A stretch of DNA of 64,000 bases, taken from the IMG/VR virus record IMGVR_UViG_3300024272_000072; one strand, 5' to 3'. Origin of the DNA: an uncultured virus (IMG/VR IMGVR_UViG_3300024272_000072). Taxonomy: Duplodnaviria > Heunggongvirae > Uroviricota > Caudoviricetes. A program made the translations under genes and the position numbers. Of the stretch, positions 11,219 to 64,000 are shown piece by piece (position 1 is the first letter of the stretch; every line of letters begins with the position of its first letter). The notes beneath the pieces are model-generated. The model did not search any database. It saw only the letters and a list, made by a program, of their open reading frames with translations, and had not been told where the DNA came from.

Positions 11219-12973
11219 ATGGCATGAGTTGAATATGATTTGAAATTAAAAATCACGGCGGAGAACCAAGCAACCGCCGAGCTTCAAAAAATGAACTCGC
11301 AAATTACAAACATTGGTAAAGTTATTTGATGACGGGCAGTTTGAAAAACTTTATTAAAGGGTGTAAAAAATGTTGCGGACGAAGTTTTAACGTTATGATG
11401 AAATTTGGAACAAGCGGAAGTTGCTTTTACAACCATGCTTTGAAGTGGGGAAGAAGCAACCAAAATGTTAAAAGATTTAACAAATTTTGCGAAGAAAACA
11501 CCATTTGAATTAACTTGAATTAGGGATAATGCGAAACAATTATTGTGAATGTGAATTGAAGCGGAAAAAATAATTCCAACATTAAAAAGTTTGGGTGACG
11601 TTTCCGCATGATTAAGTATTGATTTAAGCCGTGTTGCTTTGAATTACGGACAAGTAAGAAGCCAAGGAAAATTGACTTGAAGGGAATTAAGGGATTTTAT
11701 GATTCAATGAGTTCCTTTATTGGACGAATTATCAAAGAACCTTGGAAAAACAACAACGGAAATTCAAGATATGATCAGTAAAGGATTAATCACATTTCCA
11801 ATGGTTGAAGAAGCTTTTAAAACCATGACAAGCGAAGGTGGAAGATTCGCAGATTTAATGGATAAACAAAGCCAAACATATCAAGGAATGGTTTCAAACT
11901 TGCATGACAGCTTTACATCAATTAAAGAATCAATTTGACGTGCAATATTACCAATTCTTGAAAGGATATTACCAATAATTGCAAATATTGTGGAAAAAAT
12001 CGCCGATTGGGTTGAAGCAAATCCAGAATTAGCGTCAACATTAACCGTTATTGTTGCGGGTGCGGTTGCGTTAGTTGGTGTTTTGTCTTGACTTGGTGCA
12101 ATTATTCCAATTGTGAGCGCTTGAATGTCAGTTTTAACTTGACCAATTGGGCTTGTTGCGGGTGCGATTGCATTATTAGCAACAGCATGGATTAATGATT
12201 GGGGTGGAATAAGGGAAACAACGGCGGAAGTTACGGAAAAAATAAGTGCGATACTTTGACCACGGTTTGAAAAGTTACATAATTGGTGGGTTGAACACGG
12301 AGAAACTGTAATGATCTATGTGGAAGAAATAATGGGTGCAATTGCAGATACAATCGGAACATGTCTTGAAATTATCGCAGTTACAATCGCCGGAACATTG
12401 GAAACAATCCAAGCATGAATTGCAATTTTCAAAGCAATATGGAATGGTGATTGGGAAGAAGTAAATAATATTGCGGTTGGTTGGGCTCAAAACATCGACG
12501 CATTATTAACCGAAGCTTTTGGTGATTTGTGGACAAACATAAAAAATGCTTTTAGAGAATGAATTGACACGGTTTTGGGTTGGGTTGAAAGTTTTGTTGG
12601 TGCTATTGAATGAGTTGTTGAAAGGATCAGAAACGCATGGAACAACGTAAAAAGTGCGGCTCAAAGCGTTGTTTCAAGTGCAAAAAGCAAATATGACAGC
12701 GCGGTTGCTTCATTTAAAAGTTGGTTTTCATGAAAAAAAGCTGGTTGATGACCAGTTGTAATGTGAAACACATATTTGGTTTGAGAAAAGTGACCGGAGC
12801 TTTTTGTTCCGAACCAAAGCGGAAAAATAATCCCAAATAATGAAATTACCAACAATAATTGAATCACAATAAATATTTCATGAGTAAGCGTAAGAAATGA
12901 CAACGATATTACAGCTCTTGCAAAAGAAATGATCAGACAAATAAAGTTGGAAAAACAATTTAATATTGCATAA
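11219..12973 (+). CDS. Tape measure protein
   Basis: FAKKTPFEL, LKSLGDVSAG, YGQVRSQGKL tape-measure domain; Trp-spaced repeats; VGEKGPELFVP. Confidence 0.9.
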
Positions 12974-17590: not shown

Positions 17591-17900
17591 GGGTAACGGA
17601 GAAACCGATATAAAATGAAGCAAAAATTTCAACAGTACTCACGTCGTGAAATCCAGTGCGAATTGGAATAATACGTCGAAAGCAGGGGCTTTTGTGATGA
17701 ATCTGAATAATACTTCTTCGAATCGTAACACTAATATCGGGGCTCACTTAATTTCCAAAACCATGTCAAGCTTGTTTTATTCCAAAAGAGTAAAGCGAGC
17801 AAATTAAAACGGCTCCGTTACCTTGGCTCTTGCCAAAACATAAAAACTTTTAAAGCCGTGTTAGTAGGTAATCCGAACGCTTGGTGACATGGAACATCAA
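17591..17900 (+). ncRNA. DGR template RNA (TR 17631-17752 plus structured spacer)
   Basis: AAT/AAC-rich TR; 5' GGTAACGGAG pairs with CTCCGTTACC (17813-17822); TGGCTCTTGCCAAAACATA shared with phage B. Confidence 0.85.
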
Positions 17901-17906
17901 ATAAAA

Positions 17907-18992
17907 ATGAAAACACACTGAAACTTATTTGAAAAAATAACAGATATTGAAAATATCAAAATTGCACATTATAACGCAAGAAAAGACAAAACATTTTATG
18001 GATCAGTAAGGGAAGTTGACAATAATTTGGAGAAAGTTGCCAAAGAAATTCAAGAAATGCTTGTAAATGAAACATACGAAATAAAAGAAAGTGATTATTC
18101 AACGGAATTTATAAACGATAAATGAAAAGAAAGAAGGTTGGATAAATTACAATATAATCCACATCGTATTGTTCAACGGGACATAACGCAAGCGTTAGAG
18201 CCGATATTCATGGAAGTATTTTGTAATTTCACATGTGCAAGTTTAAAAAATCGTGGTATACATTACGCATATAAATTGATGAAAAGATACATGAAAGATA
18301 GGGATTGAACGAAATATTGCTTGAAAATAGATATTAAAAAATTCTACCCGTCAATTGATCATGATATATTGAAACAATTATTAAGAAGAAAAATAAAAGA
18401 TAAAAAAGTATTAAGGTTATTGGATAAAACAATTGAAAGTGCTCCATGATGAAAGGGTGTGCCAATTTGAAGTTATTTATCGCAATATCTCGCCAATTAT
18501 TACCTTGCATATTTCGACCACCGGTTGAAAGAGAAATTACATGTAAAATATGTTGTAAGGTATATGGATGATATTGTGATTTTTAGTAATAGCAAAGAAT
18601 GGTTGCATGAAATATTGGGGAAAATTCAAGAATATTTGCATGAAAATTTAAATTTACAAGTGAAATGAAATTATCAAATATTTCCAACGGAGAAAAGGGG
18701 CGTGGATTTTGTGGGTTATAGGTTCTTTTATGATTACACACTTTTGAGAAAAAAGACAGCAACAAGAATGAAAAGGAAATTAAAACGAATCAAGGAACAT
18801 AAAACAGACAAAAACGAATTATTAAATTATTCGGAATGGTGCAGTATTAACAGTTATGTTGGGCGAATTATTTATTGCGACCATTACAGATTGTTTGAAA
18901 AATATATTGATCCAGTAAGAAAAAGTTTGAATAGATATTATTTTTATGTGATTTGTGAACAAAAACGAGAAAAAATTGAAAAGGTATTATAA
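17907..18992 (+). CDS. DGR reverse transcriptase
   Basis: YCLKIDIKKFYPSIDH, GVPIGSYLSQYLANYYL, YVVRYMDD, GVDFVGY, SYVGW. Confidence 0.95.
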
Positions 18993-20378: not shown

Positions 20379-21242
20379 ATGGAAGAAATTATTTATGGTT
20401 GTTTGTGAATCGGTGAAGAAAACACCGATTATTTACTTTGTGACGGCGACATTGATTCGTTGCCAAACCTTTATAAACAAAATGAAACAAGGTTTGAATA
20501 CAACCAAGCAAATCAAAGCCGGAGTAAGGTTTCATGCACAATATTCAGTGCAATGGGTATGGTTTCAGATTTAATGGATTATGAATTTTCGCTTGATGAA
20601 TTAAAAGAAGTGGACGAGCTTTCATATGAGAAATGAAGAATAAGGGGACAAGGTTGGTATGTTAAAAGTGCGGTTGATCTTGTTTGTAAATGGTGGAATG
20701 AAAAACACAGTGATTTATGAAAAATTGCATATTATAGAATAAGCAAATTTTCAGAAAGGTTGGACGAAATATTGGAAAAGTGATATACAATAAACGGTAA
20801 CTTTTGCCCAACTGGGGAATATTCCGCAGATTATAGAAAAGATGCAATATTGGATTGATACGATTTCGGAATAAATAAAAATGGACATGCAATTGATATA
20901 ATTTGGAATAATGGAAAAAGAAGTGTTAAAGATTCATACAAGGGAAGAAAAACAAGCGATTGAAAGAAAGATTGCAACAGATACGAATTAAAGCACAAAG
21001 TTTCAGAATTAACAAATTATTGAACATGGTTTTATTTGTTTACAAAGGTTGCGGAAGATAACCTTGAAAGAGTAAAGGAATTAAACGAATTCAAAACATT
21101 AATATTACAAACAATTGATAATAATAGCAAAATGCGACATTTAACGGAAGATACAACATATCAAAATAAATTACATACAATGAATGAAAGCAACCGCGCA
21201 AAACTGGAAGATATAAACGCACAACTAAAAAAGCTTTCATAA
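20379..21242 (+). CDS. Papain-like cysteine peptidase, candidate endolysin
   Basis: YNQ...SCTIFS, NGHAIDI, VKDSY catalytic-triad-like pattern; in lysis cassette; homolog 55351-56217. Confidence 0.55.
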
Positions 21243-21330: not shown

Positions 21331-21461
21331 ATTCAAAAAATCAGTTGCACATCGTAAAATGTGCGATTTTATCTTGAAATAACTATTGACAAAAATTAAA
21401 ATATATACATTGCATAAGTAAAACGTAGAGCCAATATTATTTATTTGCTTTTATTTTTAAA

Positions 21462-22394
21462 ATGAAAAATTTAATATTCGACTTTTTACAATATGCAAAA
21501 GACATACATTATAGGACAAACGATGTTTTGAATCATTACAAATATGATTTATTAAACATGCACCAATACATATTATATAAAAAATGAGAATTCCAAATAA
21601 ACGTTGAAAATATAACAATGCAAGATTGCGTTTCATGGATTGAAACATACAAGGAAAATAGAAAAGTTTCAAGAAACACGATAGCATGAAAAGCAAATTC
21701 ATTGCGTCAATTCTTTAAATATTGTGCAACAATGGGTTATAAATTACAATTCAACGTGGAACAATTACCAATAATAAAAAAAGAAAGGAAACCATACGAT
21801 ATGATGAATAAAGACGAATACGAAATATTTTTAAAAGCACCAACGCTTTATGAAGAAATACCAATAATTGCACAAAGAAACGAATTATTAATTGAAATAC
21901 CATATAAAACATGATTACGCCGTGCGGAAATATTACGTTGTAAATTCGAGCATTTTCATTCATGAAACAGACAATTCCAAATATTGTGAAAAGGTGGATA
22001 TTATGATCGAGTGTTTTTTACTCCGGAATTATGAGAAAAGGTTTTACAATACGAAGCCAATTTAAAAGAATACACCAAAAAAAGACCGATTAAATCGGAC
22101 TTTCTTTTTGTTGGTTTGGATAATAAGAACCGATGAAGACAACTTGCACCAAAATATATAAACCTTGTATTTAACAAATATTCGGAAAAATTAATTGAAG
22201 AATGAAAATTGAAAAGAAGATTACACCCGCACATGGAACGCCACGCATTCGCCACAAATTGCGTTTATGCATGATTAAGCCAACAAGCAACAACACGTTT
22301 AATGAGACATCGTGATCCAAAAACCACAGAATGATATTACCATATGAATGATACTTGGTTGAAATCACAATTTGATATGATAACACACACATAA
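21462..22394 (+). CDS. int: Tyrosine recombinase/integrase
   Basis: TGLRRAEI, HMERHAFAT, LMRH..PKTTEGY catalytic R-H-R-H-Y. Confidence 0.9.
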
Positions 22395-22511
22395 AAATTA
22401 AAATGTAAAGCGAATCAAACATTTTAAGATTTTCGTAACACGCGAAAACCATAATTAAAAACAAGGTTTTCAATACCTTGTAATTTTCTCGTAAAAAAAG
22501 TGCCAAAAAAT

Positions 22512-22539
22512 TTGCATTTTAAAAATTTTTGTATATAAT
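22512..22539 (+). promoter_or_regulatory. Early sigma70-type promoter
   Basis: TTGCAT-16-TATAAT; same boxes and spacing at 58007-58034. Confidence 0.6.
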
Positions 22540-22544
22540 AGACA

Positions 22545-22733
22545 TTGTTAAACAAGATACACATTTGCGAAATTTCTTATTCTTGTTATTCAATAACACT
22601 TATACATTCGATATGGTGAGTGTGTGGAAACAAGCCAACAGAAATAAAGCAATGTGTATATAGCCACATTGCTTTTTCATAATTACTTATGCATAAGGTT
22701 CTACAAGTGAAAAGCAAGGCGATTGTTTAACAA
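22545..22733 (+). ncRNA. Structured early-leader RNA (putative trans-acting regulator), phage A
   Basis: Perfect 11-bp closing stem TTGTTAAACAA/TTGTTTAACAA starting at the expected TSS; inner stem 22669-22679/22708-22717. Confidence 0.55.
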
Positions 22734-29960: not shown

Positions 29961-30123
29961 AAGCCAAAAATTTTAACATGAAACAATGAATATGTTAAAA
30001 AATTTAACATGAAAAGAAAAAATAAGATTTTGAAAACAGCAAGGATTTAATTATATTCTTTGTATGCATAAGTAATTAAATTCTTGTAGAACCTTTGATT
30101 TATATTCAAAGGTGTTTTCATTT

Positions 30124-30573
30124 ATGACGAAAAAAGCCAAAAACCCAAAAATTGATAAAAAAAAATTGAATGATGAAAATGTGGAAATTGCCAAATTAAT
30201 TGCAAAGGTAAGGGATAAATATACATGCCAGCATTGTGGGAAAACAGCCAAGGAAACAGCAATACATGCAAGCCACATAATAAACGAAGCAAGAGATCAT
30301 AGACTTGCCAGCGATCCGGAAAATATAAAAGCATTATGTTATAATTGCCACATAAATTGGCGACATAAAAGCCCGATTGAAGCAAGCGAACGGTTTAATA
30401 AAAAGCGACCGTGAAGATATGATAAATTACAAGAAAAACACGTTGAATATATGGGTAAATGAAGCATTGACGTAATACGAATAATTGAAAGGAATAAATG
30501 GTTAAGGGAAATTTGCGAAGAAATGAAAATTGATATTTCAAAATTCAAGTATGGCGCAAAAATTGATTTATAA
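30124..30573 (+). CDS. NinG/Rap-like HNH endonuclease
   Basis: RDKYTCQHCG, HASHI, NIKALCYNCH. Confidence 0.7.
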
Positions 30574-47505: not shown

Positions 47506-47796
47506 ATGGCGATAAATGACTGAAATTTCACAACGATTTGTCCGTTAGCATATACAGACATCGAAGTTCACTATTGCAAAGGTTGATGATTTATGACTTG
47601 CCGACAATGAGTTGATAATCTATGAAATCAGCTTCAATGATGAGAAGTGCGTTTGTTCAATGACAACCCAACAGACGTTCAAGCACCATTGATTTGATGA
47701 TATGAATTCGACCACCGAGAATTCACAGATTCAAATTGATGTCGTCAATGCGTTTCTGACAACCCTATTTCTTTACTTACTTGTAGAACTTCATAA
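47506..47796 (+). CDS. Small Cys-containing tail-region protein
   Basis: Open frame in the recoded code. Confidence 0.5.
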
Positions 47797-49475
47797 TGAC
47801 TACATATTGTTTAGACCCAAATTCGACGTGGTTTGCGGTATATACTTTGAACACGTGAACAATGCCGACAAAAAATGTTGTGAGTTCACAAATCACAGCA
47901 AATCTGAACACAACTGCAACGTCTATCACAATCACAAGTTGAGAATGAGCGTTGTTCACAGCTTGAATGATTGCAACAATCGAACAAATAAATTCTGAAT
48001 GAAAAGCAACTGCAAGAGAAGTTGTTTTGATTTCAAACGTGAATTCAAACACGCTGACAATCACAAGATGATATGAGCAATGTGTGATGAATGATACAGC
48101 AACGCCAAAAGTTCTTTGAAATACAGCACAAAGCTTCACAAGTTGAGCAAAAATTTCAGTTTATGTTTCAAAAGCTTTATTGAATTGAGTTCAAACAAGA
48201 ATCAGTCAAATCAATGCACCTTGCAATACGTGTGTATATAATGAAGCAATGGCTGTCAATGATTGTGTATTGAATAATTGCAACGACCGACGAGACAAAC
48301 TATTGAAAACAAAAGCTTGTTGTTGCTACAATGACAAGTGATTTTGAAGTTGATGTGATTGAGATTGCACAATGTCTTGAAACGTTTTTCTTTGTGCTTC
48401 AAGAGAATATGAATTCAACAATCTGACAATTCAATCGTGAGCGTTAGTCAGATTTGAATGACAATGAGTGCCTACGATTAGAGTGAAAAGATGTTTCTGT
48501 AATTTGTGAACGATAGATTTGAGATGATGAACATTCGTCTGATGTTGTTCAAAAACAGACCCATATTCAAATATGTGAGTGTGAAACAATGCTGATTCAA
48601 CAGCATACAATTCAATGTGTTTCTGATGTTGATGATCGTGAAAATGATGATGTAATTGATGAAACGCAACGACTTGATGTTGATGAAATTGATGAAACGC
48701 ACAGAACTGATGTGCAAGCGTGCCAGCAACTTGTGCCGATTGATATAATTGATGAAATTGAGCAGAATGAGAATCTTGCCCAAGAAATTGACGACAATGT
48801 TGAAGTGGTGGTTGATGATGATGATACTACACTTGAAACTGATGAAACTGATGATATTGAAGCAGTTGAAGTGCGTTAGACAATTATTCAATGGACTGAT
48901 GAAACTGATGAAACTGATGAAATGGTTGAATCTGGTGAAAATGATGAGACTGATGACCTAATGGAAGCTGATATGCTTCTTGATGTGCGTGAGATTGATG
49001 AAACTGATATATTTGATGAAACTGATGAAGTTCATCTTGATGACGTGATTGTATGTCGTATTGACACGCTTGAACTTGATGAAACTGAATCATTCAATGA
49101 TGAAAATGATGAGAAAGCAACAAAGCAATGTCAACAAGATGATGACAATGATGAAATGCAATCAACAATATGTATTGATTCAGATTGTATGCTTGCGAAG
49201 TATTCAACAATATGATTTGTTCGAAATGATGACAATGATGAGCTTGATGATGTAATTGTATGCTAAGTTCATATACAGCTTGATGATGAAATTGATGATG
49301 TTGAGCAAATTGATGAAAAGTGTTCATTTGATATTTCAGAGATATTACACAATGATGTGTTGATGTGAGCTGATGAAGTTGATGAGCTTGATGAAGTGCA
49401 AGTTGAAGTTGAAACAGCTGATGTCCGTGAGCAAATTGAAGTGATTGATGTTATATGATTTGCAAAATTATGTAA
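47796..49475 (+). CDS. Gly/Cys-rich tail fibre or adhesin with GGxGGx repeats
   Basis: 559-aa frame only if TGA=Gly; second copy of the anchor domain, then many TGA-TGA-NNN repeats. Confidence 0.75.
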
Positions 49476-51693: not shown

Positions 51694-52797
51694 ATGAAAA
51701 CTTATGACAATTTATGGAATAAAATTATTGATAAAAACAACATATTGAATGCACACTACAACGCAAAAAAAGACAAATCGCATTATCAAGAAGTCAAGAT
51801 GGTCGAATCAAATCTTGACTTTTTTATAAATGAAATACACGAAATGCTGAAAAACAAAACATATATCATTGAAGACATTGACTATTCAACGTCTGTGATA
51901 AATGACAGCTGAAAAGAAAGAGAATTGCGAAAATTGAACTACTACCCACACAGAATCATACAACGAGCAATTATGCTACAATTAGAGCCAATTTTTATGG
52001 AAGTATTATGCAATCACGTGTGTGCAAGTCTGAAAAAAAGATGAATTCATCACGCATTCAAATTGACGCAAAAATACTTGCAAGATGAATGACACACAAC
52101 ATATTGTCTGAAAATCGATGTGAGAAAATTCTACCCAAGCATAGACCACGAAATATTGAAGCAATTATTGAGAAGAAAAATCAAAGACAAAGATGTGCTT
52201 GAAATTCTTGATATGATTATTGACAGCTACCCTTGAACAAAATGAGTGCCAATTTGAAGCTATCTTTCACAGTATCTTGCGAATTATTATCTTGCATATT
52301 TCGACCACCGAATGAAAGAAGAAGCGAAATGCAAATACACAGTCAGATATATGGACGACATCATCGTTCTGAATGAAAGCAAAACACGACTTCACGAAAC
52401 ATTAGACAAAATCAGAGAAGAACTTTCAGATTTGAAACTTGAAATCAAATGAAACTATCAGATTTTTCCAGTCGATAAAAGATGAATTGATTTTGTTTGA
52501 TATAGATTTTTTAGAAATTTCACATTGTTGAGAAACTGAACAAAAAAGAAAATGAAGAAAAGATTGAAAGAAATCAAAGATGAAAAAGCTGACAAACACA
52601 AGCTTTTGAATTACAATGAACGGTGCAGTATAAACAGCTACGTTTGACGAATGTTGAGTTGTAATCATTACAGATTATTTATGAAATACATTTTGCCATT
52701 GATTCCAAGTCTTGACAGATATTATTTTTTTGTTTTATCACATCGCAACGAGAAAAAATTGAAAAAATATCACGAAAAATTGATGAGTAAGATATAA
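51694..52797 (+). CDS. DGR reverse transcriptase
   Basis: YCLKIDVRKFYPSIDH, GVPIGSYLSQ, VRYMDD, GIDFVGY. Confidence 0.95.
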
Positions 52798-56244: not shown

Positions 56245-56277
56245 AAAAAGCACCACAACGGTGCTTTTCTTTTTTTA
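56245..56277. terminator. Bidirectional intrinsic terminator
   Basis: AAAAAAGCACC-acaac-GGTGCTTTTCTTTT between convergent genes. Confidence 0.65.
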
Positions 56278-56760
56278 TCTCAAATCTTTACAAGCCCAGA
56301 TTTCTCTTTTATATGCAGAACATCGATATATATTCACATCATTGACATAAATATAAACTCTTGCTTGGTCTGATAAATCTTCATCAGCCAATTCGTTCGA
56401 TAAATTTACAGATTGCCCCCTTGCAATAAAATCAACTGTGTCTTTGATTCATTCAATGTTTGGAGTTTCTGAATAATAAATATTCAAATCTGCTTCTTTA
56501 CATTCATCTTTACAGACTACTTTCACAAATTCAGATTGTTCAGCTGAAAATAATTCCGTGATTCTATCAATTCTTGCTTGAACAACATTTCTCATTTTTT
56601 GAGTTTTTGTTGAAACATAAGTTGAAGATGTTGAATTTGACGTTGTTGAAGTGTTTCAATCTTTCGCAAGACTGTTCAATATTCAACAAACAAAGATGAA
56701 AACAATCACTCGAAATCGCCATTTCTTATGCAATGGCTTTTTTGCCTTTTCTTCTGCCAT
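56275..56760 (-). CDS. Membrane-anchored extracytoplasmic protein (possible superinfection exclusion)
   Basis: MAEEKAKKPLHKKWWFWVIVF (CGA=Trp), TM, Ser/Thr linker; only minus-strand gene recognised. Confidence 0.7.
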
Positions 56761-56912
56761 TTTGAACGACTTATGATATAAATGAAATCAATATACAGAA
56801 TCACTTTCGAATGTCAATAGATTGACATTTGACAAAAAAAATATATAAATATACTCGTTGACATAAGCTTATGAAACACACAAATCTTTTTATATGCTTA
56901 TGTTTTTTATCA

Positions 56913-57854
56913 ATGAATGAATTTATAGAAATATTACAACAACGACGTGATTATGAAGAAAACGTCAGAAATCACAATTCATATATCAATCGCTTCTATA
57001 TTATAAGAAACTTCTGAAAATATCTTGTTTCTATCAAGCCACAATTCAAGCTTGAAGAAATCGAACTATATGAAATCATTCAATATCTTGTATATTACAG
57101 AACGCACAAAAATTGCAGATGAACAATACCGAGCAGATGTGCTGAATACAATGTGATTTGTGCAATCAGAAATTTTTTCAGATTCTGCAATATTCTTTGA
57201 ATGCGTTTGAAATTTAATCGAGAACAGATTCCGATGTTCAAACAAGAGCCAGTGAAACGTGAGCCAATGAGCGAAGAAGATTATCAACTAATGCACACAG
57301 CAATCAGATTGTTTTCAAAATCAGAAGAAATCAGATTGCGTGATGAACTGATGATTGAAATACCACGAGAAACTTGATTGAGAAAATCTGAAATTGTCAG
57401 ATGTAAGTTCAAAGATTTTCACAATGAAAACAGACAATTCAAAGTTCTTGTGAAGTGAAATAGATATGAATCAGTATTTTTTTCTGAAAAATTACAGAAA
57501 AAAGTTTTTGAATATGAAAACATATTGAATCAGAAATACAAACATCTTGATATTGAAAAGCTTTTCATTTGTTTATGACAGAAAGAAAAGTGAAAAGAAA
57601 TCAGTTCTGATTTATTATGAAGACATTTTCTCTTGATTGTGAGAAGAATGAAGAAAGAATGAATGATTCCGAAGAACAAAACGCTTTGTCTTCATCAAGA
57701 AAGACATTCATTCGCAATGCGTTGTGTTTATTCTTGATTATCACAACAAGCAACAACGAGATTGATGAGACATTCAGACCCAAAAATCACGCTTCATTAT
57801 TATCATATGAACGATTCACGATTACTGGATCAATATGATTCGATTCGTGTATAA
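56913..57854 (+). CDS. int: Tyrosine recombinase/integrase
   Basis: TGLRKSEI, HQERHSFA, LMRHSDPKITLHYY. Confidence 0.9.
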
Positions 57855-58040
57855 AATTCCAACAGCGAAAATATCATTAAAAATAAAAAAGTCAAAACTT
57901 TGTCATTTTTTTTCGTTTCAAGGCTTCATACCTGCTATTTGAAAATTCAATTAAGAATTGATTTTTTTCGATTTAATTTTTTTTATAAAAAAAAGTCGTC
58001 AAAAATTTGCATTTTTGGAAAATTTTTATATAATAGATTT

Positions 58041-58181
58041 CAGTTAAGTTTGAAAATCGAATGAAAATGTCTTTGATTGCAAAAAATTGATGACTTTTTT
58101 CAAGAGATTATTCGTATCGTCAAGGTTCTACAATTCCGAAGTAGCTTATGTCAACCGATACGACAGCAACAAACTTGACTG
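58041..58181 (+). ncRNA. Structured early-leader RNA, phage B
   Basis: Closing stem CAGTTAAGTTTG/CAAACTTGACTG just after TATAAT; inner stem TCGTATCG/CGATACGA; loop shares AAGGTTCTACAA with phage A. Confidence 0.55.
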
Positions 58182-58478
58182 TCGTTCAATATCACATCAT
58201 ATTTAATTCCGACAAACAAAGATGTTGAAATGAACGACACAACATCTTTGTTCGTCTGAATTGATTTGTGTGTAAGATTCGAACGAACAAAGGTTCGAGT
58301 CTTTTTATTTAATCACAAAATCAGATGAGAATCAGATGAGTTGTTGCAATAGTTGTGAGCATTATTGTGTGAATGTTCACGCCAGCTGGACTATATGTAT
58401 ATACGATTCCGTTTCTCATTTGATGTATGTGATGAAAAAAAGTTCGAAAATTTTATTTCAATTTTTTCTTCAAGCAAG

Positions 58479-59210
58479 ATGACGAATAAAAACTATTTCA
58501 AATGTTTTCGCTTGTTTCTTGAAACTTGAAAGAAGCTTGATGATTCGATGAAGTGAAAATATTATGAATCATTGCTTGAATATTGACTTGATTGAATCAA
58601 GCCCACTGATCCAATCATCGACGCGTTGTTGACTTCTGCGATGTATTCGATTGACAAATCAGATGAAGAACTGAAAAGAAAATCTGAATCAATGCAATGA
58701 AATCAAAACGCAGTCAAGAGCTTTGAAAAGCTATCAAAACAGAAAAAAACAGACAAAAACAAAAACAAACAGAACGAAACAGAGAAAAACATATGAAGAA
58801 AAGAAGTATATGAAGAATATGAAGATAATACAAACAATAATAAAATCATCATAAATGATGATTCAGAATCAAAAGATTCTGTTCAGTATTGAAATGAAGA
58901 AGTGAATAAATGTCTGACGAGAATCAAATCATATAATTGATGACTATTAGATTGAACAGTCAAAAACAATCGCAGATATGCAAAACTTCTGATTGATAAA
59001 CTGAACAAACTTGAATCGATTCAAGCTTGAAAATACACACGAGAAGAAACGCTTGACATCATTCTTCAAGTGATTTCGAAAAACAAATACCACGTTTCGA
59101 AAATTACATCAGCAGAATCGATTTATCGCAATCTTGCAGTTCTTATGCAGACGTGCAAGAATGACATTTGAAAAGCACAATCGAATCAAATCATTTTACC
59201 TACAATTTAA
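58479..59210 (+). CDS. Replication initiator-like protein
   Basis: LLEYGLDGIKP..DPII, GNQNA; C-terminus homologous to 22891-23622. Confidence 0.65.
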
Positions 59211-59726
59211 TCAAGAGAATGAATCAAATCAAAGTTTATAAAGAAATGACTTATGTCGAATGCTATGACTGAACGATATTTGAAACACCTGCAAAATTTG
59301 AGACAGTTGTTCAATTGCGAAAAAATGCTGACTTGTATGTTCAAATATGAGACACATCAATCGCAAAATGAAACATCAAAACAATCACGAAAAAGCAATT
59401 GTCAGATGTTGAACAAATATTGTATTCACAAGACAGATTCGTTCGCGAACAATTACAGAAAGAGATTGATGATAGAATCAAAAATTGATTTCGTGTGAAT
59501 GTTGAGATTGTACAAAATTTACTTCAAAAATATTTGTAAAAATGCCGATTGAATGAATTACCGAACGAGAAACACAGCCATTGTTCAAAATCTTTCTTCG
59601 CAGAATATGATTCAAGAACTTTGACGAATACATTGAACTGTTTTGAGACAATATCGAAAAGAGAAAAGAAACAGTTCGCCGATTTCAAAAAACATACCCA
59701 CTTTTTACCATTAAAAAACAAGAGAA

Positions 59727-60332
59727 ATGAAAAACATCTTAAAAAAACTCGCAGAAGCAAAAAAGAATATTGCTTCACAGAAAATCACAAAAGAGTGAAA
59801 GAACACTTATTCAAACTATTCATATTTCACGCCAGAACAAGTCAGTTCAATTGTTCAGAAAGCGTGTGATGAATTCAAACTGTTCACAAAATTTGACTTG
59901 ATCCGTGATGAACAGTGAATCGAATGACAGTTGACGATATACGATATTGAATCAGATGAAAATATCACGTTCATTTGAGCAACTGCAATTCCAGAAATCA
60001 AAGCAACGAACGTTGCACAACAAATCTGATGATGTATGACATACACCGAAAGATATTTGAAAATGACAGCGTTCTGAATCGCAGACAATTCACTTGATTT
60101 CGATACGACTGAAAACACAGAAAAGACAGCGAAAGCACAATCAAAAGCTGAAACTAAAAAAGAAACAAAGCGATTCAACAAAGAACAACTCGAAAACTTG
60201 AAAACAAATACTGAATACTTGAAGAAATTCGAGAAATCAGACGATTTGCTTCAAGACATTCAGAAACTTTGATATTCAGTCAGCAAAGAAATGAAGATGA
60301 AGATTGCTGATGTTCGAGCAAGTGTTGAATAG
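59727..60332 (+). CDS. ERF-family single-strand annealing protein
   Basis: KSGKNTYSNYSYFT, QQIGGCMTYTERY. Confidence 0.75.
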
Positions 60333-61352
60333 TTTTCTATTTATTCCTTAATCAAACCAACAAAATGCAACAAGAGAAAAAAAGAATCAGAAGTGTTTGA
60401 AAATATCACTTCGAAAATGTCAGAATCTGTTGTGAGACAGATGTGATATATACGAGATGTCGTATTTGTAAAGAATACAAACCAAGCAACTTGAAATATT
60501 TCAGAAAAGATTCTGATCCAAACGCACAAAGATTGATTCAACCATTATGTCTTGAATGTGCAAGACAAATGGAAAAAGCGAAAAGATATAAAAAAGTTGA
60601 AGCAGAAAAACCAATCACAAACGTTGAACAGAAAGAATTGTTTGATTGAAAAGTCTTCACGAAAAAAGAATCAGAATCAAACGAAACACTCGAATCAAAA
60701 ATCAACAAAATCTTTAATTTCTTATGACTGAAATAAAAATGAACATACAAGAAATAATCGACAAATATGAATCATTCAAAAAGAAATGATTGAAACTAAA
60801 CGAACAAGATATGTTCGACTGGCTTGAACTTCAAGATGTGATTGAAGACAAAGTGATTGAAATCAAATCAAAATATCTTGAAGACAAACTTGTATTCGAC
60901 CGTGATTATTGATTGCGTCTGATTGAGTTGAAAGACAAGAAAGACGCAGATTGAAAAAAGATTTTCACAGATACAACAGCAAAAGCATTTTGCGACAATG
61001 AGTTCTTTGAACGTGAACTTGCATTGATTACAGCAAAAGCAACGTATGAGAATCTGATGAACAAAACAAACAATGTTGTTGAATACATCAATGTGATAAA
61101 ATTATCAATGAAGAAAGACTTTACAATTTAATCAAAACAAAATGACAGAAACAAAAGACAAAATAATCAATCAATGATTATCGATTGAAAAAGACAAATT
61201 GTTCGCAATTTGCAAATGAGACCGAAAGCTTGCAAGAGTTGAAATGATGATGACGTTGAAGAACGTGTTGAAAGTTTCAATTCTCGAAGCACACGAGAAA
61301 ACAAAGCAACTGAAACCCGAACGAGAATCTTTTTATTCCTTAATCAATTAGA

Positions 61353-62159
61353 ATGAGACAAAAGATAGTTTATATATTGAGCATTTTATTCGCAATACTC
61401 GTGATTCTATGAATCGTATTGTTGAAATGAAATGTTGTTGCGAAATCAGAACCGATTCAAGAAATATTGAATCAGATACAAACAAATGAATCTGAACTGC
61501 AACAGCTTGAAATCAGACAGAATGAATTGAATCAATGAACTGCAATGTTGAAAGAAGAATTGTTCGTGAAATATTGATTGCAACTTTCAGAAAAAGAAGA
61601 AACAGAACTTTTGACTGATGAAAATTGAAATTGTATTTGATGAATCTGATGTTCAAAAGATGAACGAACACCGTGAAAATTGAATGAAAGTTGAAACGCA
61701 CAAGAAATGCCAATTGTTGAATGAAATGATTCACACGATAAATTCAAGAATCTTGCAATTGCTTATTGATTGGACGCTTCACAGATTCGAGCAGTCGAGA
61801 ATCACTATTGAATCACAGAATGAGTGATTCTGTGCATTACAGTCGCAGAAACATCTTGATGAAACAGATGAGCTTGATGAAAAAATATTTGAAGTGTATG
61901 AAGCAATGACAGATGAGAAAGACCAACTTATGCACTTATGGAATCTTGACTTGAAGATATTTGAAAAACATTGACGAACAGATATTTGTGAAAAAAACAA
62001 ACACTTTGATGTCTTTCAAATGCGTGAAGTTGTAAAGAAACAAACGACAATTGAAAAAGATATGCAACGAGTGAATCACACCGAGAAAAAAATATGACAG
62101 CGTGTCTTTCAACAATTTATTGAAGCATTGATCCAGCGACATTCAGCATAAGAAGATAA
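61353..62159 (+). CDS. Membrane-anchored lysozyme-like protein
   Basis: Homolog of 25460-26224. Confidence 0.55.
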
Positions 62160-62184
62160 AATTTATTTTCTTAATGCAAACAAA

Positions 62185-64000
62185 ATGAGAAAATCACAAA
62201 TCAAAGAATTGTATGATAAATTTCTTTGACTGAAATGTTCAATGTCAGTTTACTATCAGAGAATCAAACATTGAATTGATCCATTCACAGCAATGAAACC
62301 AGTTGAAAGAAAATATGAAGTCAGAAGCAAGAAATATTGAGCAGAGCTTGAACGATACAACAAACAACCACAACCGAAACCACCGAAGCAGAAATTCTAT
62401 TGAAGACTTCAAAAATGATATTCAAAAGAAGAAGCAATCAAGATTCAACTGAAATGTAAAGACAGAAAAAAGAGATGACAAAAAGATTTGTATGTGAAAG
62501 CATACACAGTCAAAGAAAGAAGATACAAACAAGATGACTATGAAATCAGAATCACGTATCATTCAGATGAAGCAAAAGTTTTCAAAGATGAATATGAAAG
62601 AATGATACGTGAAACTGAACAAAAACGAAATGAGACTGATGACATTATTGAAGCAAAAGAGCTGAAAAAGAAACTCGACAAACTGATTGAAGAATATGCA
62701 CTTTTTATTTCTTATAATAGCAAACAAAATGAATCATTGTAGAATTTGTTGAAAAACAATACCGAACATATTCAATTGATGACTTGCATTGCGATGTTCA
62801 GAATGTCGTGCGATTCAAGATGAAAAACTTTCAGAAATGATGTTTGAACACGACAGTCTTGAATCAGAGAATGAATATTTGAGAAGTCGTTTCTTTGATA
62901 CAGAAAGAGAATATGCTGAAAGAAATTACAAATATTCAAAACTGAAAAAAAGATATGATTTATTGCGACAAAGACATTCTGTCGTTATCAGAGAAAACGC
63001 AAGATTGACGAAAAAGAATGAAGAAATGAACAGAGTTTTTATGCAGAAATGCGAAGAAATGAGAAAAGAAATATTTGATTTGAATAAAAAAGTTGAAGAA
63101 CAATATCACACGATCCAACAATATGAGCAATGATTCGCAATTTGAAGCTATCATTGAGAAGAATAATTTTAGACCATAATCAAAAGAAATAATGAAAAAG
63201 AGAACATTCAGAAATAAATTTCAAGTATTCTCACTTGAAAGATATGATCCAAACACGTGAGACGAAGTTGTTTATGTTTCAGAAATGTTTGAAAACATTA
63301 TTGAAAAAGCAAAAAAAATTTGATATGAAAAATCAATTGATGTGTATTTATACGAACGAACGGCTGACTGAATTTGATATGTTCACGAGTGAAAAGACCT
63401 AAAGTTCAAATATTGAATATCAAAAATCAACTATACAGACAGAGAAAGAGTATGAATCAAATCAGCAATCATCGCAACTTTCTGAAAAGTAGAAGACGCA
63501 AAACTTTTTGAAGATATTTCAAAATATTGTGATATTTGTCTGCAACAAGAATAATTTTATATCAATTATTATTTATCAAATGGAAAAGAAACAAGAAAAA
63601 AGAGCTGAAAAGCCACAAATCAAAAAAATAATCACAGAATCTGAAATTTATTATTGAACAAATCGAAAAATCATAATTTCAAAAAGAATTCTTTCAAAAT
63701 CATATATTGTGAAAGTGAGACACAACACACGAAAAGAATCAACATTGATTGATAAAGATTTCAATACTTATGAAGAAGCCGAAGAATATGCAATACAATA
63801 TCTTGAAGAAACGATGAAATTTTAGTTCAAAATATTTCGAAAAATGAGACAGAAAATCAATCTTTTTGAAGATCCAGAATATAGAAGAAAAAAAAGAATC
63901 AGAACAGTATGAGATTTTGATTCTGCAAAAAGAAAAATGGTGAAATTATTTTGTCAGATTTATTTCTGAAATGAAAACTGTCGAAGTCGAATGGAATACA
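62185..64000 (+). other. Short hypothetical middle-region ORFs
   Basis: Packed frames open in the recoded code; 62185-62742 partly resembles 27256-27621. Confidence 0.45.

Follow-up and report, generated by a model that had tools for sequence, protein, structure and literature searches.

The CI RNA of phage P4 and the c4 RNA of phages P1 and P7 are small structured RNAs from the leader of a phage operon that carry a guide for two target sites and act by RNA-RNA control, and their guides and targets differ together between related phages; P4 CI promotes termination (PMC4825925). Here we describe a locus of similar design in a 64,000-nt stretch of DNA from an uncultured virus (IMG/VR record IMGVR_UViG_3300024272_000072), referred to throughout, at its full length, as the window. 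It lies downstream of the tyrosine integrase gene (int) of phage B, the last of three phage-like units in the window (C, A and B), where a sigma-70-like early promoter precedes a predicted structured leader RNA. We favour, with some confidence, the reading that a guide in this RNA relieves attenuators in front of int and of a late operon, and that the phage attachment site (attP) splits the RNA gene.

As with C4 and CI, a guide, here in a 36-nt loop, is complementary to two targets, the int leader and a distal leader. However, the C4 and CI targets flank the RNA on the same transcript, whereas those described here are the leaders of two other transcription units, 1.2 kb upstream (int) and 7–9 kb downstream, the latter behind a terminator and a -10-like box, with transcript boundaries as we infer them. 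The locus differs from C4 and IsrK in having no match to that Rfam clan, and from CI in that its geometry predicts relief of a terminator-like hairpin and in that attP interrupts the RNA gene.

Other elements offer partial parallels. IsrK of Gifsy-1 is the terminated isoform of a leader and targets a phage message in trans (PMC4825925). In the integration-dependent immunity of the mycobacteriophages BPs, Brujita and Charlie, attP lies in the repressor gene next to int and integration removes a degradation tag, such that viral and prophage genomes express different products and integration sets the switch (PMC3694055). The present locus shares with these an attP in a regulatory gene adjoining int, but its attP sits within a non-coding leader, where it would split the promoter from the antisense RNA and the early operon, and no repressor or cro gene was identified. 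In Tn916 the end genes are insulated by a terminator and a leader RNA is needed after excision, canT being cis-acting and processive (PMC11658703). The likeness is that of an integrating element whose promoter reads across the joined ends after excision; the difference is that the complementarity here is sequence-specific and antisense to distant leaders, and no relation to canT was seen in sequence or in Rfam.

The small RNA DsrA pairs with the 5' arm of an inhibitory hairpin in the rpoS leader and so frees the downstream start, much as is proposed here. DsrA and IsrK belong to other families, and the present RNA differs from both in its two phage targets, its lineage-specific co-variation and its link with attP. 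In phage lambda, sib is an RNA element across attP from int which integration uncouples from int, and whose action is in cis, through an RNase III site at the 3' side of the read-through int message; the element described here has its own promoter and complements a 5' leader. Full-text searches on trans-acting phage RNAs and on promoter disconnection, and a listing of papers on Absconditabacteria prophages, gave no description of this RNA, and to our knowledge nothing is known of the choice between lysogeny and lytic growth in the TGA-recoded phages of candidate phyla (Absconditabacteria/Gracilibacteria), in whose genomes no repressor gene is evident beside the integrase. The locus provides a concrete circuit, with a predicted RNA that is a new structured family, two targets with natural compensatory variants, and attP placed so that integration rewires it. 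It extends the RNA-based phage control of P4 CI and P1 c4 to a new host group as a new variant of antisense control, differs from these in its logic (predicted attenuator relief on int and the late operon), and ties RNA control, through the unexpected link with attP, to integration-dependent switches. The natural guide and target variants are a ready-made set of compensatory mutants.

A conserved structure in the early leader

The preliminary description of the window had held that phage B keeps the leader architecture of phage A with a different sequence and co-varying targets. That architecture (promoter, closing stem, two-motif hairpin and terminator; Table 1) recurs in A, in B and in many relatives, with compensatory changes. 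The early promoter is kept in A (22510-22540) and in relatives, and the 272-nt RNA has a minimum free energy (MFE) of -80 kcal/mol (z = -5.6). The closing stem P1 was correctly placed and has 12 pairs, including one G.U that is an A-U pair in locus L020; the equivalent stems are GTTAAAC/GTTTAAC in phage A and GTCAAAC/GTTTGAC in phage C. The inner stem, P2, likewise has the eight perfect pairs described, and it co-varies (CGTATCG/CGATACG in B, ATGTATC/GATACAT in L040, CTGTAT/ATACAG in L041).

Relatives were collected by integrase-based searches, which gave 14 viral, 43 metagenomic and 6 genome loci. Seven rows were left out: L025 (the window's own A), L030 (22% integrase identity), and L031, L036, L048, L054 and L071, which are metagenome copies of viral contigs already counted. 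The set counted is therefore 56 loci plus two window junctions, 58 in all; L016 (G001:C76) was dropped because it is about 99% identical to phage A and thus not independent. The motif GTTCTAC is found at most 800 nt downstream of int in 38 of the 58. Among the 20 without it, seven have less than 350 nt downstream, in L041 the motif is altered to GGTTCTGC, and several others represent prophage ends. The relatives fall into two specificity classes at the int leader: class B, with leader (G)TTGACATAAGC(T) and guide AGCTTATGTCAAC, and class A/C, with leader TGCATAAGTAA and guide TTACTTATGCA.

Nine distinct class-B variants (the window, L039, L017, L033, L020, L042, L080, L040 and L041) were aligned, and their RNAalifold consensus comprises five helices and 64 pairs. 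Within this structure 93.7% of cells are paired, against 33–47% when the partners are slid by one to three columns, and both partners have changed in 23 of the 64 pairs, where shuffles average 10 and none of 500 does as well; the co-variation score of 0.323 compares with 0.190 in shuffles (again 0/500). T1 contributes 24 consensus pairs, with both partners changed in 10, and T2 has 5 of 11 so changed. P1, P2, T1 and T2 carry G.U pairs; such pairs are numerous in the structure and can form only in a transcript of the + strand. A transcript of the guide region from the - strand was considered and rejected, as no promoter is flagged there and the G.U pairs favour the other strand. We also rejected, as the conserved feature, a leader peptide (open reading frame (ORF) 58064-58147, 27 codons in code 25), whose frame stays open in L017, meets a stop sooner in L020 and is not matched in A or C.

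An Rfam cmscan of 56600-58500 at E values up to 10 returned 28 weak hits, none of them C4, IsrK or CI-type, and at gathering thresholds the whole window gave RT-17 alone. An alternative hairpin overlaps the 3' arms of P2 and P1; it is ACGACG/CGTCGT in L020, and its loop contains the P1 3' arm, which suggests a possible pseudoknot, or a switch depending on whether the 5' arm is present.

Complementarity with the integrase leader

The P2 loop displays two blocks, Y and X. Block Y is identical to its counterpart in A (22695-22706), as had been noted, and AAGGTTCTACAA with up to one mismatch occurs four times in the window, a number reached in none of 100 shuffles; it complements GTAGA(A/G)C in distal leaders and, in class A/C, is complementary to the int leaders as well. 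Block X is the exact 13-nt reverse complement of the motif X' at the start of the int leader, again as described. X' follows a -10-like box which the consensus promoter scan did not flag, its spacer or sixth base lying outside the rules of the scan; an equivalent box stands 5–9 nt before the target motif in the int leaders of other lineages. The cis pairing of X' with GCTTATGTT just before the int ATG (56913) is real and conserved: the hairpin has an MFE of -13.7 kcal/mol (z = -4.1; 0/200 shuffles as stable), with conserved arms and a variable loop (L017-L020). The equivalent hairpin of int A has z = -0.9.

Chance matches in AT-rich intergenic DNA are one possible explanation of such complementarity, and dinucleotide shuffles of the 152-nt region upstream of int and the 469-nt region downstream give this idea some room. 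The longest complementary match between the two regions is the 13-mer, and matches of at least 13 nt arise in 16 of 1000 shuffles, which is unusual although not overwhelming; matches of at least 11 nt are commonplace (127/1000), and two of them occur together in 2 of 300 shuffles. The window statistics alone are thus suggestive, not conclusive. A second, 11-nt match had also been proposed, between ACACACAAATC in the loop of the int-leader hairpin and GATTTGTGTGT (58263-58273), a segment that the single-sequence MFE fold includes in the base of T1. This match is present, but L018 and L019, which have an identical RNA, have the loops AAAAACAATTGC and AACACGCGATTT. Because it falls in a variable loop, is not conserved and is of a common length, we treat it as chance.

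The comparison between lineages is more informative. In 17 distinct lineages the 80 nt that precede the int ATG were compared with the guide hairpin to find the longest exactly complementary stretch, and all 17 have a cognate match of 9–19 nt, located at -51 to -61 from the ATG after a TATA-rich box. Within-class means are 11.7 and 12.0 nt, against cross-class means of 6.9 and 6.8 nt. Compensation is seen in L042 (guide GCTTATGTCAAA, leader TTTGACATAAGC) and in L062, where guide GGTTCA goes with leader TGAACC while others have GGTTCTAC with GTAGAACC. The exact guide and target cores have no further occurrence in the window. Since 17 lineages have kept the complementarity, with co-variation, and since shuffled guides do not reproduce the distal matches given below (0/200 in four of five lineages), chance is refuted for the main pairings, for which it is hardly credible, and stands only for the match of 56876-86 with 58263-73. 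The balance tips slightly towards a functional pairing with the int leader.

Complementarity with a distal leader

Sequence beyond position 64000 was judged from relatives. The closest proxy is L019, whose RNA region is identical to that of B and which is 91% identical over window positions 56758-62976, diverging after about 63000; it has an HNH gene 9 kb downstream of int. The leader of that gene (L019 19937-19979), TTGACATAAGATATTCGGAAATTGTAGAGCGTTGACGATACG, is near-continuously antisense to the B guide loop and the 5' stem arm. Two target strings had been predicted for this region: their exact forms are absent from L019, and degenerate forms, TTGACATAAG and TTGTAGAGCG, lie inside the 43-nt antisense tract.

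In an unbiased search, every locus was scanned over its full length for the segment that best matches the locus's own guide in antisense, using local alignment scores and 200 dinucleotide-shuffled guides; these replaced RNAduplex, which is too permissive on long AT-rich inputs. The loci L020 and L080 are too short for it. In all five class-B loci that reach far enough (L019, L017, L042, L041 and L040) the best hit lies 7–9 kb downstream. Four of the five score 57, 56, 51 and 34 against null maxima of 30–32, with none of 200 shuffled guides as good in each case. A guide-by-target matrix across lineages is dominated by its diagonal, and compensation is explicit: CGTATCGTCAA faces TTGACGATACG in B and CGTATCTTCAA faces TTGAAGATACG in L017, the changes being CGTATC[G/T]TCAA against TTGA[C/A]GATACG, with a middle segment TTCGGAA against ACAAA. 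The tract is colinear over about 40 nt and tolerates indels of 1–2 nt and G.U-type mismatches; transition mismatches comprise 25 G.U and 11 A.C, counts that are not independent of one another.

Each distal tract has a terminator and a -10-like box upstream; downstream of it come a 3' arm that is conserved (TATTTATCT..CGCT), then a U-run and the ATG. Int and distal leaders thus share a hairpin and U-run directly before the gene, with the 5' arm complementary to the guide. Cofolding of guide and distal leader gains -28 to -33 kcal/mol with loss of the leader hairpin, whose own stability is z = -3.7 in L017 and z = -2.4 in phage A. The gene behind the leader is NinG (PF05766) in L017 (9700-10158), L042 (9856-10281) and L040 (18358-18780), and HNH (PF01844) in other lineages, for example at window 30124-30573, the phage A gene that had been labelled 'ninG-like' and is instead an HNH endonuclease. 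As either gene may stand behind the same leader, the leader is the conserved unit, and the exchange amounts to non-orthologous replacement at a fixed regulatory position. We consider RNA pairing with the distal leader likely.

The preliminary claim that guide and target co-vary in a phage-specific way therefore stands in its main part, a co-varying guide and target RNA, at both the int and the distal leaders. Lineage-specific co-variation is found at the distal leader; at the int leader the specificity is class-wide, and the second 11-nt match falls away.

Alternatively, the blocks at the int promoter, attP and the late promoter might be recognised as DNA by a phage protein, for instance as arm-type sites of the integrase or as an operator, and co-vary because one protein reads them all. 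The blocks do adjoin promoters and attP, X contains a shared half-site CATAAG and is palindromic in A and B, and the permuted block order of class A/C described below is easier for independent DNA sites. However, a colinear tract of some 40 nt that tolerates small indels and G.U-type mismatches, target hairpins whose partner arms are conserved and compensated, and G.U pairs in P1, P2, T1 and T2 that are sensible only as RNA all argue against DNA recognition; in type C the complementary reading is perfect (13/13) and the direct reading degrades. We regard DNA sites as very improbable.

An attachment site within the leader

The preliminary description had not seen that attP lies inside the leader. 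L032 and L034, with integrases 89–91% identical to that of B, share promoter and leader up to ...TTGATTGCAAAA (58084) and then pass into unrelated DNA with a tRNA-Arg(CCG) gene and a phosphoribosyltransferase-domain (PRTase) gene (PF00156). These are two attR junctions at one tRNA-Arg/PRTase locus, the flank being host DNA. The locus L074, from an Absconditabacteria metagenome-assembled genome (MAG), departs from the phage sequence five bases later (58089) into a different flank. The genome G227 also carries this tRNA-Arg/PRTase locus, at 82% identity over 553 nt and without a neighbouring integrase, and its junction shares the core AAAATGTC...TGCAAAAAAT.GA..ACTTTTTT.AA with the phage leader; it is, by this alignment, an unoccupied attB.

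Alignment of attP (window and L017), attR (L032 and L034) and attB (G227) thus reveals the features of a tyrosine-integrase attP, namely a core common to attB, phage arm and host DNA meeting at the junction, and an inverted repeat around the crossover. The attR junctions and the empty attB place attP at about 58062-58104, with the promoter and the P1 5' arm to one side of it and the guide to the other, and we hold this position with high confidence. Because attP lies inside the leader, integration would separate the promoter from the guide. The inverted repeat is consensus helix 2 (58062-58102) with the crossover in its loop, and 4 of its 12 pairs are changed on both sides. Some class-B lineages have another sequence, TTATTTCATAAAAT, at this place and presumably use other sites. 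The intact leader is bridged by contigs from three runs, with no contig break at the crossover among them.

This arrangement would also suit a cis-acting processive antiterminator or insulator module, like Tn916 canT or HK022 put, in which T1 and T2 insulate a promoterless prophage end, the complete RNA permits read-through, and the sequence complementary to the late leader works within one long transcript, not in trans. The genes from leader to HNH are all on the + strand, a terminator stands between the leader and the early genes, P1 forms only with both att arms joined, and Tn916 itself combines an end-proximal terminator with a cis-acting RNA needed after excision (PMC11658703). Against this, the terminator and -10-like box directly upstream of each distal target suggest that the target has its own transcript. 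The int leader, standing upstream of the guide, is out of reach in cis for transcription from the early promoter, and Rfam gave no match to any known family of antiterminator RNAs. A cis-acting module seems to us improbable.

The proposed circuit

In the reading that we prefer, the + strand RNA 58041-58310 would be made from the strong early promoter and end at T2, and the 36-nt loop of P2 would serve as an antisense guide. In the B type the loop and the 5' stem arm would act as colinear antisense to the first 43 nt or so of the leader of the next transcription unit, which starts with the HNH or NinG gene 7–9 kb downstream, and block X would also be antisense to the first bases of the int leader. 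The guide would pair with the nascent int and late-operon leaders. Since in both targets the guide would occupy the 5' arm of a hairpin whose U-run abuts the start codon, binding should block an attenuator or start-masking hairpin and turn the gene on. The complete RNA would be made from its own promoter only in a circular genome, whether infecting or excised; in a single lysogen the guide, the terminators and the early genes would be left without a promoter. What we infer from these observations is transcription itself, pairing inside the cell, whether the effect is positive or negative, and the logic of the switch.

On that sign we are evenly divided. The same RNA and pairings could work in the opposite direction, as an immunity-type antisense repressor like P4 CI or P1/P7 c4, pairing triggering cleavage, termination or a translation block and the two classes being heteroimmunity groups; the preliminary description had likewise thought of immunity. 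Loop-displayed guides with co-varying targets are a c4/CI hallmark (PMC4825925 and PMC12197685). No divergent repressor gene is seen beside int, where the neighbouring genes are on the + strand, and a duplex of about 43 bp would, by our estimation, suit RNase III. However, the guide covers the 5' arm of an inhibitory-looking hairpin with a U-run, and removing such a hairpin should activate. With attP in the leader, moreover, a single lysogen would lack a promoter-driven guide, the opposite of what immunity needs. Judged by its geometry, attenuator relief appears to fit at least as well as immunity, and we think a repressor of the latter kind unlikely.

Several points weigh against attenuator relief by this guide. 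The existence of the RNA, its start site and its terminator are predictions from sequence. The 13-nt int pairing is about neutral relative to the leader's own hairpin (cofold gain -1.1 kcal/mol), and would therefore need to act co-transcriptionally; nor does it discriminate between phages of one class. The distal target is known from relatives, phage B's own distal leader lying beyond 64000. Among those relatives L040 has a distal score of 27, reached by 25 of 200 shuffled guides and not significant, and L033 has no distal target within the 10 kb downstream of int that were searched; in L019 the distal hairpin is not unusually stable (z = -0.8) and no sigma-70-type promoter is flagged upstream of the distal leader. 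In class A/C the order of the guide blocks is permuted relative to the targets, and a simple continuous duplex is therefore impossible there. The intact leader of the window sits within an unexplained tandem of three units. Finally, no attL junction was found: a search of viral contigs with early-gene proteins gave seven loci, none running from host to guide, an exact scan for the guide core gave four contigs, all already known, the L074 genome (G003) gave no match, and 301 genomes of its class gave two marginal hits (E about 1e-3).

A further step, which we put forward tentatively and consider doubtful, is that the locus forms a lysogeny switch which works without a repressor and responds to the genome's physical state. 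Integration would then silence the guide, the early genes, int and the late (HNH/NinG-terminase) genes together, and the guide and target classes would be compatibility groups of co-resident Absconditabacteria phages.

Leaders of phage A and class A/C

In class A/C both blocks have complements in the int leader and in the HNH leader. The HNH-leader hairpin of phage A is compensated in L046 (CCTATGA/TCATAGG). The class A/C relatives L022 (2128-2139), L027 (6219), L044, L049 and L062 have a second, same-sense copy of AAGGTTCTACAA directly before the first early-gene ATG, which could be a ribosome-binding region or a competitor for the same complementary sequence.

Five class A/C relatives lose homology inside the leader. 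A CACAC...GTGTG hairpin (22597-22628) is inverted in phage A relative to type C (L022 1820-1860) and the L060 group (L060 11040-11085), and homology of the L060 group ends just after it; this hairpin may mark the att core of class A/C. Downstream of a distant integrase relative (33% identity), L070 10930-11180 contains many TATGCAATTGCAT-like palindromes, a different kind of regulatory or att region.

Table 1. Features of the phage B leader region, with phage A counterparts, as read or predicted in the window
Feature	Position	Strand	Details
-10-like TATA-rich box, presumed int promoter	56842..56855	+	read from sequence; TTGACA hexamers at 56822-27, 56829-34
Target X'	56857..56869	+	GTTGACATAAGCT; start of int leader, exact complement of block X
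Int-leader hairpin	56860..56909	+	GACATAAGC 56860-68 / GCTTATGTT 56896-904, then U-run ending 4 nt before ATG
Second match of the preliminary description	56876..56886	+	ACACACAAATC; loop of int-leader hairpin; matches GATTTGTGTGT 58263-58273
Tyrosine integrase B	56913..57854	+	313 aa, code 25, 10 TGA codons; PF00589 E = 1.6e-16
Early promoter, sigma-70-like	58006..58034	+	TTTGCA-17-TATAAT; 10/12 consensus matches
Predicted structured leader RNA or small RNA, ~270 nt	58041..58310	+	P1, att hairpin, P2 guide hairpin, T1, T2
P1 closing stem, 5' arm	58041..58052	+	CAGTTAAGTTTG; partner 58170-58181
attP core region	58062..58104	.	inverted repeat (att hairpin); crossover within ~58079-58089 (GCAAAAAATTG)
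P2 guide hairpin	58112..58163	+	8-bp stem, TCGTATCG 58112-58119 / CGATACGA 58156-58163; 36-nt loop displaying Y and X
Guide block Y	58122..58133	+	AAGGTTCTACAA
Guide block X	58143..58155	+	AGCTTATGTCAAC
Alternative hairpin ACGACAG/CTGTCGT	58160..58185	+	read from sequence; overlaps P2 and P1 3' arms
P1 closing stem, 3' arm	58170..58181	+	CAAACTTGACTG
T1 long hairpin, without U-run	58194..58273	+	MFE helix 58194-58227 / 58240-58273
T2 predicted intrinsic terminator	58274..58310	+	terminator scan; 11-bp stem (58274-58303 + U-run), then TTTTTATTT
First early gene	58325..58489	+	54-aa hydrophobic protein; similar peptide in L040 (~11333-11500); no Pfam match
Phage A int-leader targets	21411..21432	+	TGCATAAGTAA and GTAGAGCC; GTAGAGCC pairs with one G.U
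Phage A guide blocks	22681..22707	+	X AATTACTTATGCAT and Y AAGGTTCTACAAG; loop of hairpin 22671-22715
Phage A HNH-leader targets	30064..30112	+	ATGCATAAGTAATT, CTTGTAGAACCTT; overlap hairpin CCTTTGA/TCAAAGG just before ATG 30124

Genomic context

The window has a G+C content of 29–36%. Translation table 11 yields very short ORFs, and long frames appear only with TGA as a sense codon; a frame of 559 codons at 47796-49475 has 121 TGA codons and is very glycine-rich if TGA is glycine (code 25), which pointed to code 25 over code 4. A Candidatus Absconditabacteria MAG holds a close relative of the integrase, and because of this and the TGA sense frames proteins were read with code 25.

The modules of A and B are syntenic, with a lysin-like gene, a tyrosine integrase, the conserved promoter, the structured non-coding region and early genes, the genes all being on the + strand. 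Integrase A (21462-22394) is 39% identical to integrase B, and both match PF00589. The first early gene of B, encoding the conserved 54-aa protein, follows the leader terminator and overlaps the start of a DUF6291-like gene, the DUF6291 match being weak in B and above cutoff in A.

As a whole the window consists of three phage-like units, each about 32–35 kb long, which are related but distinct and stand head to tail in the order C-type (ending at 21242), A and B, and each int-leader junction is native and cognate. The order C then A recurs in an independent 64-kb IMG/VR contig (L028 and L023 are this one contig). Tandem integration at one att site was rejected as the cause of the three units, as the att regions of A/C and B differ and both junctions are cognate and non-chimeric.

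The sole opposite-strand gene near int B (56275-56760, -) encodes 161 aa with an N-terminal hydrophobic segment and no Pfam match. Its promoter (56817-56790, -; 11/12 consensus) is divergent from the int promoter, and no equivalent is present in phage A; the gene may be a moron or serve in exclusion. Elsewhere in the window an RT-17 RNA (Rfam RF03020, 47 bits) at 17819-17904 overlaps the start of a 367-aa ORF (17889-18992), and a YMDD-type reverse-transcriptase motif was recognised by eye in ORF 51694-52797; these two ORFs may belong to diversity-generating retroelements, one per phage unit.

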